From assembly GCA_052327205.1 (NCBI GenBank), contig CM126204.1, positions 43,958,001-44,022,000 on the forward strand: a stretch of DNA of 64,000 nucleotides. The letters are read 5' to 3'. The translations under genes and the position numbers were made by a program. Shown here in pieces: positions 930 to 2,065 of the stretch. Source of the stretch: Somniosus microcephalus. Taxonomy: Eukaryota. The notes under the pieces were generated by a model. The model made no database searches, was not told the DNA's origin, and saw nothing but the letters and a program-made list of their open reading frames with translations. Numbering within the stretch: the stretch's first letter is position 1; every line of letters starts with the position of its first letter.

Positions 930-2065
930 TTATTGTCTTCTGCCTCTTCTTTTTCTTTTCTGCCTTTTTGAGACTCTCGGGGCTCCTTTCTCGGCTGCCA
1001 GCTGTAGCGCCACCAACTCTCTATGTTCCTTAGACCTTAAGTGTTTCATCCTGATTTCAGCACTTTGGGAGTTTTCCTCACAAACTGGGCAGACCAGATC
1101 CTCGTAATATTCAGTGTCACTCAACAGGTCATGGTAATATTCGGGGTCGTCCTGAGTTAGGCCAGCGAGAGGGCCTTCTACTTCCTCCTTACCCATCTGG
1201 ACGTTAGCCGACTGTGGTTCCTTCCCTAGACATCTTTCTTGAAAAGACTTCCTCATACATTCATATTCATCACGCTCTTCCTAGGTTGTCTGCCATTCCT
1301 TCGCTACTGTCCTCATTTGTGAGTTCAATACCTTCCCTTCCATCGGGGATTGCGTTATCCGGCTATTTACTCCTACTGGAGTAGCTGTTTCCCCATCCTT
1401 CTGTTCAATTTGACGTAATTCAGCGTCCTTTTGGCATCCTTGTAAAAGCTGTGTTGCCACCTCAGCTATCTCCATCCCTTTTGGAAGCTCCGAATTCCTT
1501 CCCTTTGAAGCCTGAAGCTCGTGTTTCCCTTGTGGAGTCTTGTCACTCTTCCTGTGAAGGAGTTGGCTGGTCGTTAACTCTTCCCCGGGGACACTGTGGA
1601 TCAGCTTCTTCTCTATTTCATCCACCTTTCCCTCTGGTACTTGGGTTTTAAGCGCTCGAAGAAGTTGCGCCTTGATGCTCTCTAGCTCCAGTTCAGGGGC
1701 CATTCTTCCAGTCTCTGTTTCTCTTCCAGTTGCCTTTCCTTCCACTGCCCGGATTCCCAGTTGACTGTTCTTCAAGTTGTTGAACCCTGGTCATTTCCGC
1801 CTCATATTTGTCTTGGGTTTCCTTCAGTACTTTTGAGTTCTTGAACCTCTTGGATTCCATGTTCTGCCATGTCTTCCACCTCCAATTTTTCATCGATGGA
1901 TGGAATCTCTACCGATGAGTCTGTCTTGGCCTGGAGCTCCTCAAACATTTCCTGCATCCTTTGGACTTCTTGCTCATGTTCAACCTTTAGTTGCTCATAT
2001 GCTTTCACTAAAACTAGCTTTTCGGAGGTTGCCGAGTTAACCCCCTCCAGAATTGTAGCCTGGGC
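930..2065 (-). pseudogene. Disrupted C-terminal continuation of the element polyprotein (coiled-coil, C2H2 finger, basic tail)
   Basis: The frame stays open after TAG 2066-2068 (AQATILEG...KAYEQLKVEHEQ). Apparent 1-nt shifts near 1832 and 1765 join it to ORFs 1693-1893 and 1281-1775. TAG 1281-1283 is in frame with ORF 930-1256 (CPVC-x12-H-x5-H, KRQKRKRRGRRQ). Confidence 0.7.

Follow-up and report, generated by a model that had tools for sequence, protein, structure and literature searches.

A U1/matrin-like zinc finger at the end of a putative pol-replacing tail in a gypsy-type LTR element of Somniosus microcephalus

The analysed window, a stretch of 64,000 nucleotides from Somniosus microcephalus (assembly GCA_052327205.1, contig CM126204.1, positions 43,958,001 to 44,022,000 of the forward strand), harbors a gypsy-type long terminal repeat (LTR) element of 4,916 bp at positions 300–5215, within which a single zinc finger is encoded on the minus strand. 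Translation of this strand over 930–1280 revealed ...PEYYHDLLSDTEYYEDLVCPVCEENSQSAEIRMKHLRSKEH...KRQKRKRRGRRQ-stop, displaying a C-x2-C-x12-H-x5-H motif at 1091–1023 with ligand codons at 1091–1089 and 1082–1080 (C) and at 1043–1041 and 1025–1023 (H). The spacing given in an earlier annotation made from the letters alone (hereafter the sequence-only reading) was thus confirmed. It was found once across the six frames of the whole window, expected by chance 0.008 times per base-shuffled element (500 shuffles), and represented by one finger of this type in the element. The acidic duplicate before the finger and the basic stretch after it were likewise present as described. While the acidic repeat (21 of 33 nucleotides identical, spacing of 30 nucleotides) was only modestly unusual, its identity at 5 of 7 residues being matched in 55 of 2000 shuffles, the basic end with 9 K/R per 12 residues was equalled in 2 of 2000. 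The following features were identified in the element (minus strand, unless marked as without strand):

295–299, without strand: left copy of the 5-bp target-site duplication, same as 5216–5220
300–564, minus: 3' LTR of 265 bp, ending TG...CA, 2 mismatches to the 5' LTR (blastn 99.2% over 255 nucleotides)
565–577, minus: polypurine tract adjoining the 3' LTR
578–929, minus: 3' untranslated region, containing a tandem duplication of 28 bp (636–696)
930–977, minus: basic C-terminal end RVSKRQKRKRRGRRQ, net charge +10, plus stop codon; resembling a nuclear localisation signal (NLS) or an RNA-binding stretch
990–1091, minus: single C-x2-C-x12-H-x5-H zinc finger (1091–1023) and the helix after it, U1/matrin/JAZ-like
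1098–1154, minus: 10-codon duplication, acidic, tyrosine-containing, net charge -8
1281–1283, minus: in-frame stop, nearly private to this copy
1284–1763, minus: charged linker of the tail in the frame of the finger, without Pfam match
1764–1833, minus: segment flanked by this copy's two frame changes, with length differences at both ends in other copies
1835–2410, minus: Glu/Gln/Lys/Leu-rich part of the tail, coiled-coil-like by composition only, with a private stop inside (2068–2066)
2411–2640, minus: acidic Ser/Thr-rich linker, starting where the reverse transcriptase (RT) of relatives starts
2641–2932, minus: aspartyl protease with LDTGS motif (Pfam Asp_protease_2, 24.5 bits against a cut-off of 24.3)
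3119–3226, minus: two Gag CCHC zinc knuckles (zf-CCHC, 19.2 bits against a cut-off of 20.8; zf-CCHC_5)
3227–3793, minus: Gag capsid region, K02A2.6-like, with its ATG at 3793
3794–4940, minus: GC-rich leader (GC about 0.60, CpG observed/expected 0.93) with tandem repeats of 54 bp (1.9 copies) and 109 bp (3.3 copies)
4941–4950, minus: primer-binding site
4951–5215, minus: 5' LTR
5216–5220, without strand: right copy of the 5-bp target-site duplication

The two LTRs differ at 2 of 265 bases, and the element is, judged from its sequence, young. Its primer-binding site, presumably of the tRNA-Ser type, adjoins the 5' LTR. No further fragments of the element were found within the window, and a search of 250–5300 against Rfam gave no match at E ≤ 0.1. 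Base composition was even from Gag to the finger (A 0.34–0.36), and because of this uniformity a long residence of tail and finger in the element is suggested.

Downstream of the protease, no Pfam match for RT, RNase H, or integrase was obtained, so that the enzymes of an autonomous Ty3/gypsy element are lacking, and tblastn with two pol queries taken from the hits revealed no pol in the internal region or the window. Using the first 385 residues (Gag and protease) as a query, 393 hits at E ≤ 1e-10 were found among 8,000 scored candidates, the best relative being 50% identical and several being named K02A2.6-like. Among the 120 relatives listed, 87 continued for at least 60 residues past the aligned part, and because 84 of these 87 run into pol-like sequence there, the tail is placed at the protease/RT junction, i.e., in the position of pol. 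It comprises about 570 residues and is ordered as acidic linker, coiled-coil-like stretch, charged linker, acidic repeat, finger, helix, and basic end. Thus, while the single-frame Gag with two CCHC knuckles and the protease resemble those of K02A2.6-like Ty3/gypsy elements with up to 50% identity, RT, RNase H, and integrase here give way to this tail. A C2H2 motif was detected in one of the 120 relatives and was of the Kruppel type. We also came across a 498-residue protein (P0066, from one 1.6-kb contig) in which a related Gag (48% identical) is followed, with no protease, by an acidic linker and C2H2 fingers of the Kruppel type; it was set aside as a precedent, its fingers being of another class and the contig possibly a chimera (or another Gag-finger fusion).

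With its K02A2.6-like Gag-protease, short LTRs, and 5-bp target-site duplication, the element shares features of the Mag lineage, to which we take the K02A2.6-like name to be tied. Since it harbors no RT, it has no place in an RT phylogeny and can only be called a Mag-like derivative. For Mag elements, PMC3286476 describes LTRs of short length, target duplications of 5 bp, primer sites of the Ser/Leu type, and leaders that occasionally contain tandem repeats.

In the present copy, the finger lies outside the open Gag frame, since two in-frame stops (2068–2066 and 1283–1281) and two frame changes (within the intervals 1908–1807 and 1790–1698) were identified. For comparison with other copies, four of 16 listed sequencing runs were compared with 570–3870 at 85% likeness, namely contig runs X1, X2, and X4, bearing species labels A, B, and C and stemming from two studies, and RNA run X15 (label A), of which about 24% was read; the comparison tool listed the best-supported 40 of 737 differences. 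At the stop at 1283, 405 of 411 and 19 of 19 RNA reads differed, as did 99.98–100% of the contig depth in X1, X2, and X4, and at the stop at 2068, 651 of 661 and 19 of 19 RNA reads as well as all listed contig depth. A length difference at 1764 was present in 317 of 519 RNA reads and in contigs of all three runs, and one at 1833 in 117 of 317 RNA reads and all depth of X4, with loose ends at 1834 in X1; the partial counts at both sites may reflect alignment clipping or real variation. Both length differences lie inside overlaps of open frames and jointly explain the shift from the Gag frame to that of the finger. The breaks are therefore mostly the copy's own, and because the two stops are missing from other copies and length differences occur there at both frame changes, the family probably encodes Gag, protease, tail, and finger as one protein of about 950 residues, a conclusion reached by frame arithmetic on separate short pieces.

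The sequence-only reading had put the finger at the end of a retroelement polyprotein. The finger most likely ends the single frame of the family, while here the frame is broken by stops and frame changes, and no RT, RNase H, or integrase precedes it. A contig of run X1 spans 784–1010 with one differing letter, and because this letter is apparently the near-fixed difference at 875, the basic end and its stop are probably common to the subfamily of that contig. Some further observations concern the history of the copies. Despite the near-identity of its LTRs (2 differences in 265 bases), 17 of the 32 coding differences listed, both stops included, were private to this copy, which may stem from a template that was damaged before being mobilised in trans. 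In the contigs of run X1, the subfamily sites were shared by about 3,700–5,200 depth units, compared to 29–40 for two of the private sites. This hints at 100 or more close copies, with the proviso that depth does not equal copy number. Moreover, 51 RNA reads skipped 58 bases within 1705–1764, with nine other letters between, which is possibly an expressed variant subfamily and was seen in none of the DNA contigs compared.

Based on the same list of 40 differences, of which 32 were coding and the eight non-coding ones omitted, and on depth cut-offs for shared and private that we chose ourselves, 10 of 15 differences shared by the subfamily occupied third codon positions (in the tail, 7 of 10; p = 0.02), compared to 4 of 17 private ones (Fisher p = 0.03 for shared versus private). 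Due to this third-position excess among shared differences, it is suggested that the tail frame is maintained as protein. Most of the signal was held by the coiled-coil-like half of the tail (1835–2410). None of the 40 near-fixed differences listed fell within 876–1251, which a ranking bias could explain, and the ligand codons were absent from these 40 of 737.

In the RNA run, 30,603 of 16.65 million reads matched 570–3870, corresponding to about 1,840 reads per million over 3.3 kb. Because just 550 of them were at least 99% alike, this signal is expression of the family and not of this copy. Depth over 1014–1124 was 1096.6 versus 86.7 by mate direction (12.6 to 1), indicating sense transcription over the finger, provided that the library was stranded in the usual way. 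At a likeness of at least 85%, RNA depth ranged from 1096 to 1470 over 1014–1235 compared to 225–444 over 1236–1457, and 323 RNA reads matched up to 1209 and then diverged, a hint that more distant relatives retain the finger end. The family is abundant.

As to the origin of finger and tail, a word search among proteins of 204–2000 residues gave no relative of the finger region among 327 candidates at E ≤ 0.1, which is weak evidence, and none was found in the metagenome or viral contigs scanned. Searching 1.84 billion representatives with phmmer resulted in three matches at E ≤ 0.001, all to multi-repeat proteins with summed scores, namely an fn3 repeat construct (taken as a chance match), one protein from a plant, and one from a crustacean that bears zf-met repeats, which we rejected as donors. 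Residues 380–575 of the first open reading frame (ORF) found no match among 606 candidates of 316–1007 residues; the tail near 2130–2060 may resemble the coiled coils of ANKRD24, RAI14, and UACA. The donor search proposed with the sequence-only reading thus remained empty. Its term "captured" is nevertheless a reasonable hypothesis, since the 120 listed relatives of the Gag-protease part carry no such finger.

Regarding function, we favor, at a probability of roughly 0.45, the reading that oligomerised tails use the finger and the basic end to hold element RNA and/or to supply nuclear import, all functional steps being inferred. For their insertion, elements lacking pol depend on borrowed RT and integrase, as established for non-autonomous elements (PMC6431247). 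Because the tail is in one frame with Gag, it would be made one-to-one with it, in structural amounts and within the particle, its position implying that it faces the interior. The retained protease may release the tail at the place where RT is normally freed, and the coiled-coil-like part would oligomerise it, grouping weak single fingers with their +10 ends. Finger and basic end would then take hold of structured RNA (either the genomic RNA of the element or its primer duplex) and/or provide a nuclear-import signal, while the acidic repeat might keep the basic end in check before RNA is encountered; element RNA would thereby compete for the RT and integrase of an autonomous relative. A more far-reaching version, according to which an abundant, expressed vertebrate gypsy lineage swapped its whole pol for a kept accessory protein, i.e., a protease-released oligomeric tail with U1/matrin-like finger and basic import signal that wins packaging, reverse transcription, or nuclear entry at the expense of its helper, is less likely than not and offered tentatively.

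Several results weigh against RNA holding or import by the finger and basic end. With regard to the frame, no read or contig covers the way from protease to finger, and the gap at 1833 was seen in contigs of X4 only and in only 117 of 317 RNA reads. The sites of the third-position signal lie at 1690–2573, none of them in the finger, and they come from 40 of 737 differences. The net charge of the finger is 0, the positive charge being located in the +10 end, and no autonomous partner was identified. The results on the finger class point both ways. The sequence-only reading had suggested a scan for Pfam zf-met and zf-C2H2_jaz, which gave the latter below its cut-off of 22.6 (13.6 bits with 116 aa, 16.2 bits with 43 aa), while zf-met, as well as zf-U1, was unlisted at E ≤ 10; zf-C2H2_2 reached 19.8 and 21.8 bits against a cut-off of 26.9. 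The protein language model of the ESM Atlas gave a top match of 0.95 to zf-met/zf-C2H2_jaz with 178 shared features, and its ten best family-bearing matches all belonged to one family or clan, but the recognition value of 2135 was below the mark of 2300, so that a high score is weak evidence. A hydrophobic core residue is usual where this finger has Ser. Using a single sequence, AlphaFold produced a poor model without hairpin (pLDDT, the predicted local distance difference test score, of 51.6), whereas three added zf-met-type rows led to a hairpin and a helix-kink-helix with pLDDT 83–88 over the finger, a model biased to that fold by the rows from which it was built. Its fold search was headed by JAZ in complex with double-stranded RNA (dsRNA) (2mkn; Z 4.8, root-mean-square deviation 2.2, 44 residues aligned), with Z 4.8 being in the range of common arrangements, followed by fingers of a U1 small nuclear ribonucleoprotein (snRNP) complex, Mod5, TUT1, and TUT4, all RNA-binding proteins, above Kruppel fingers. 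Foldseek gave the same order, with no match at E ≤ 0.001, and sequence matches in the PDB were non-significant, the best being ZFa at E 0.15–0.16.

Taken together, the finger looks like a member of the U1/matrin/JAZ class in these models, but it is not assignable to the Pfam families zf-met or zf-C2H2_jaz or to the JAZ-type dsRNA binders. Hence, the class named by the sequence-only reading was borne out as a resemblance by language-model and fold searches and not by Pfam, and its exclusion of an integrase HHCC finger and a Gag knuckle agreed with both searches. With known fingers of the class (JAZ/ZNF346, 2MKN; Xenopus ZFa, 1ZU1; TUT1; Mod5; U1/U2 snRNP), it shares the spacing, as given for the class in the covered parts of PMC9775027, and the H-x-x-S-K-x-H ending; the hairpin with helix-kink-helix was predicted in the alignment-aided model only. 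In comparison, it is sub-threshold, single, near-neutral, encoded by an LTR element, and without identifiable orthologue.

Among the other explanations, one that we consider unlikely is that the finger arrived with host sequence as a passenger and is tolerated or decaying, with selection confined to Gag, protease, and the coiled-coil-like part. The sub-threshold Pfam scores, the neutral charge, the lack of any listed subfamily difference within the finger by which selection could be gauged, and the failure to find other elements with a related finger region would all fit. However, all four ligands and the downstream helix are intact despite the many private changes of this copy, diverged relatives seem to keep the finger part better, as judged by the higher RNA depth over 1014–1235 and the 323 reads diverging past 1209, and 876–1251 is free of the 40 near-fixed differences listed, subject to the ranking bias mentioned above.

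Similarly improbable is a role facing protein or chromatin and possibly of use to the host, in which the finger binds protein and the basic end serves as an NLS, so that the Gag fusion is nuclear, poisons the particles of autonomous relatives, or acts in development like zebrafish Bik. A single uncharged finger next to an acidic flank and the high family-level expression given above are in line with it, as is the need for young non-autonomous gag-only families in zebrafish development reported in the covered parts of PMC12067270. On the other hand, the structural neighbours are mostly RNA-binding fingers, and the continued amplification seen from near-identical LTRs, target duplication, and subfamilies fits selfishness without host benefit.

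Less probable still is that the finger binds dsRNA in the manner of JAZ and thereby protects the RNA of the element against silencing or innate sensing. It is true that the spacing equals that of the JAZ-like Dus2 finger (covered parts of PMC9775027), that JAZ with dsRNA was the top fold match, and that ZFa, at E = 0.15, was the top PDB sequence match. As far as the sources were covered, however, JAZ binds dsRNA through a highly positive surface of helix 1, kink, and helix 2 (PMC9775027) and has four fingers (PMC9775027; bioRxiv 10.64898/2026.06.03.729416), while neither such a surface nor several fingers per chain are found here: the corresponding surface (residues 73–97 of P0001, the finger frame) holds 5 basic and 4 acidic residues, though this copy may differ from others in that respect. 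JAZ-like dsRNA binding, to which the sequence-only reading had linked the finger, is thus doubtful despite the top fold match, since the finger is below the Pfam cut-offs, single, and nearly uncharged. Finally, a chance motif in non-coding or separately translated sequence outside the Gag protein, which the four breaks before the finger in this copy and the want of a piece covering the whole frame might suggest, is very improbable given 0.008 expected motifs per shuffled element, mostly private breaks, uniform composition over the frame (A 0.34–0.36), and an independent language-model signal.

Non-autonomous LTR elements are usually reduced to cis signals or Gag alone. In contrast, the family described here keeps Gag and protease, appears to maintain about 570 extra in-frame codons in the place of pol, was met under three species labels, and is highly expressed. 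If finger and basic end are functional, they would offer a handle on how a pol-less element competes for helper enzymes or enters the nucleus, and a U1/matrin-like finger would join the few domains known to have become fixed in LTR elements; both are small enough for peptide testing. Should the far-reaching version of a swapped pol hold, this would be a protein of a parasite of a parasite, which we did not find in the literature searched. Even as passengers, they would belong to an unusual pol-replacement family worth annotating.

Non-autonomous LTR elements coding for Gag are already known, as are gypsy elements with acquired domains; the following comparisons refer to the covered parts of the sources. 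TR-GAG elements of plants (PMC4350172) are likewise non-autonomous, bounded by LTRs, provided with one Gag-containing frame, and apparently still mobile, but they are below 4 kb and Gag-only, while the present element has 4,916 bp, an animal host, a protease, and a long in-frame tail and thus falls outside TR-GAG. Zebrafish Bik-1 and Bik-2 (BHIKHARI) and chicken ENS-1 (PMC12067270) are also young, multicopy, expressed, pol-less vertebrate LTR families, and the single long frame of Bik-1 encodes a coiled coil, though an N-terminal one; they are derived from retroviruses, with no protease or finger described, whereas the present element is of gypsy type with a C-terminal finger. Extra modules are known from gypsy AlkB elements of orchids (PMC9289625), additional ORFs of plant elements (PMC7264820), some of them nuclear, and planarian Burro (PMC6431247). 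There, the module was added to an element containing pol, often as a separate ORF, while here it is located in the place of pol and in frame with Gag. The architecture of Gag-protease followed by a finger-ended tail in the place of pol was not found among titles and the beginnings of abstracts, a search that left Repbase and Dfam, where it may be catalogued, outside its scope, and the covered parts of PMC2774666 and PMC11011659 contained nothing on it.

Elsewhere in the window, a C-x2-C-x12-H-x3-H motif closes a short frame on the minus strand at 34147–34209, which we take to be like the C-terminal finger of an RTE-type long interspersed nuclear element (LINE). Three related repeat fragments were identified at 12509–13244, 18043–18619, and 61350–61803, whose frames presumably resemble the 3' end of ORF2 of a CR1-type LINE. 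Short interspersed repeats were present near 5967, 7867, and 51635; their motifs and those of the three fragments would point to a cartilaginous fish as host. A low-complexity C/T repeat array with five runs of N at 9500–11200 is probably a masked or poorly assembled satellite.
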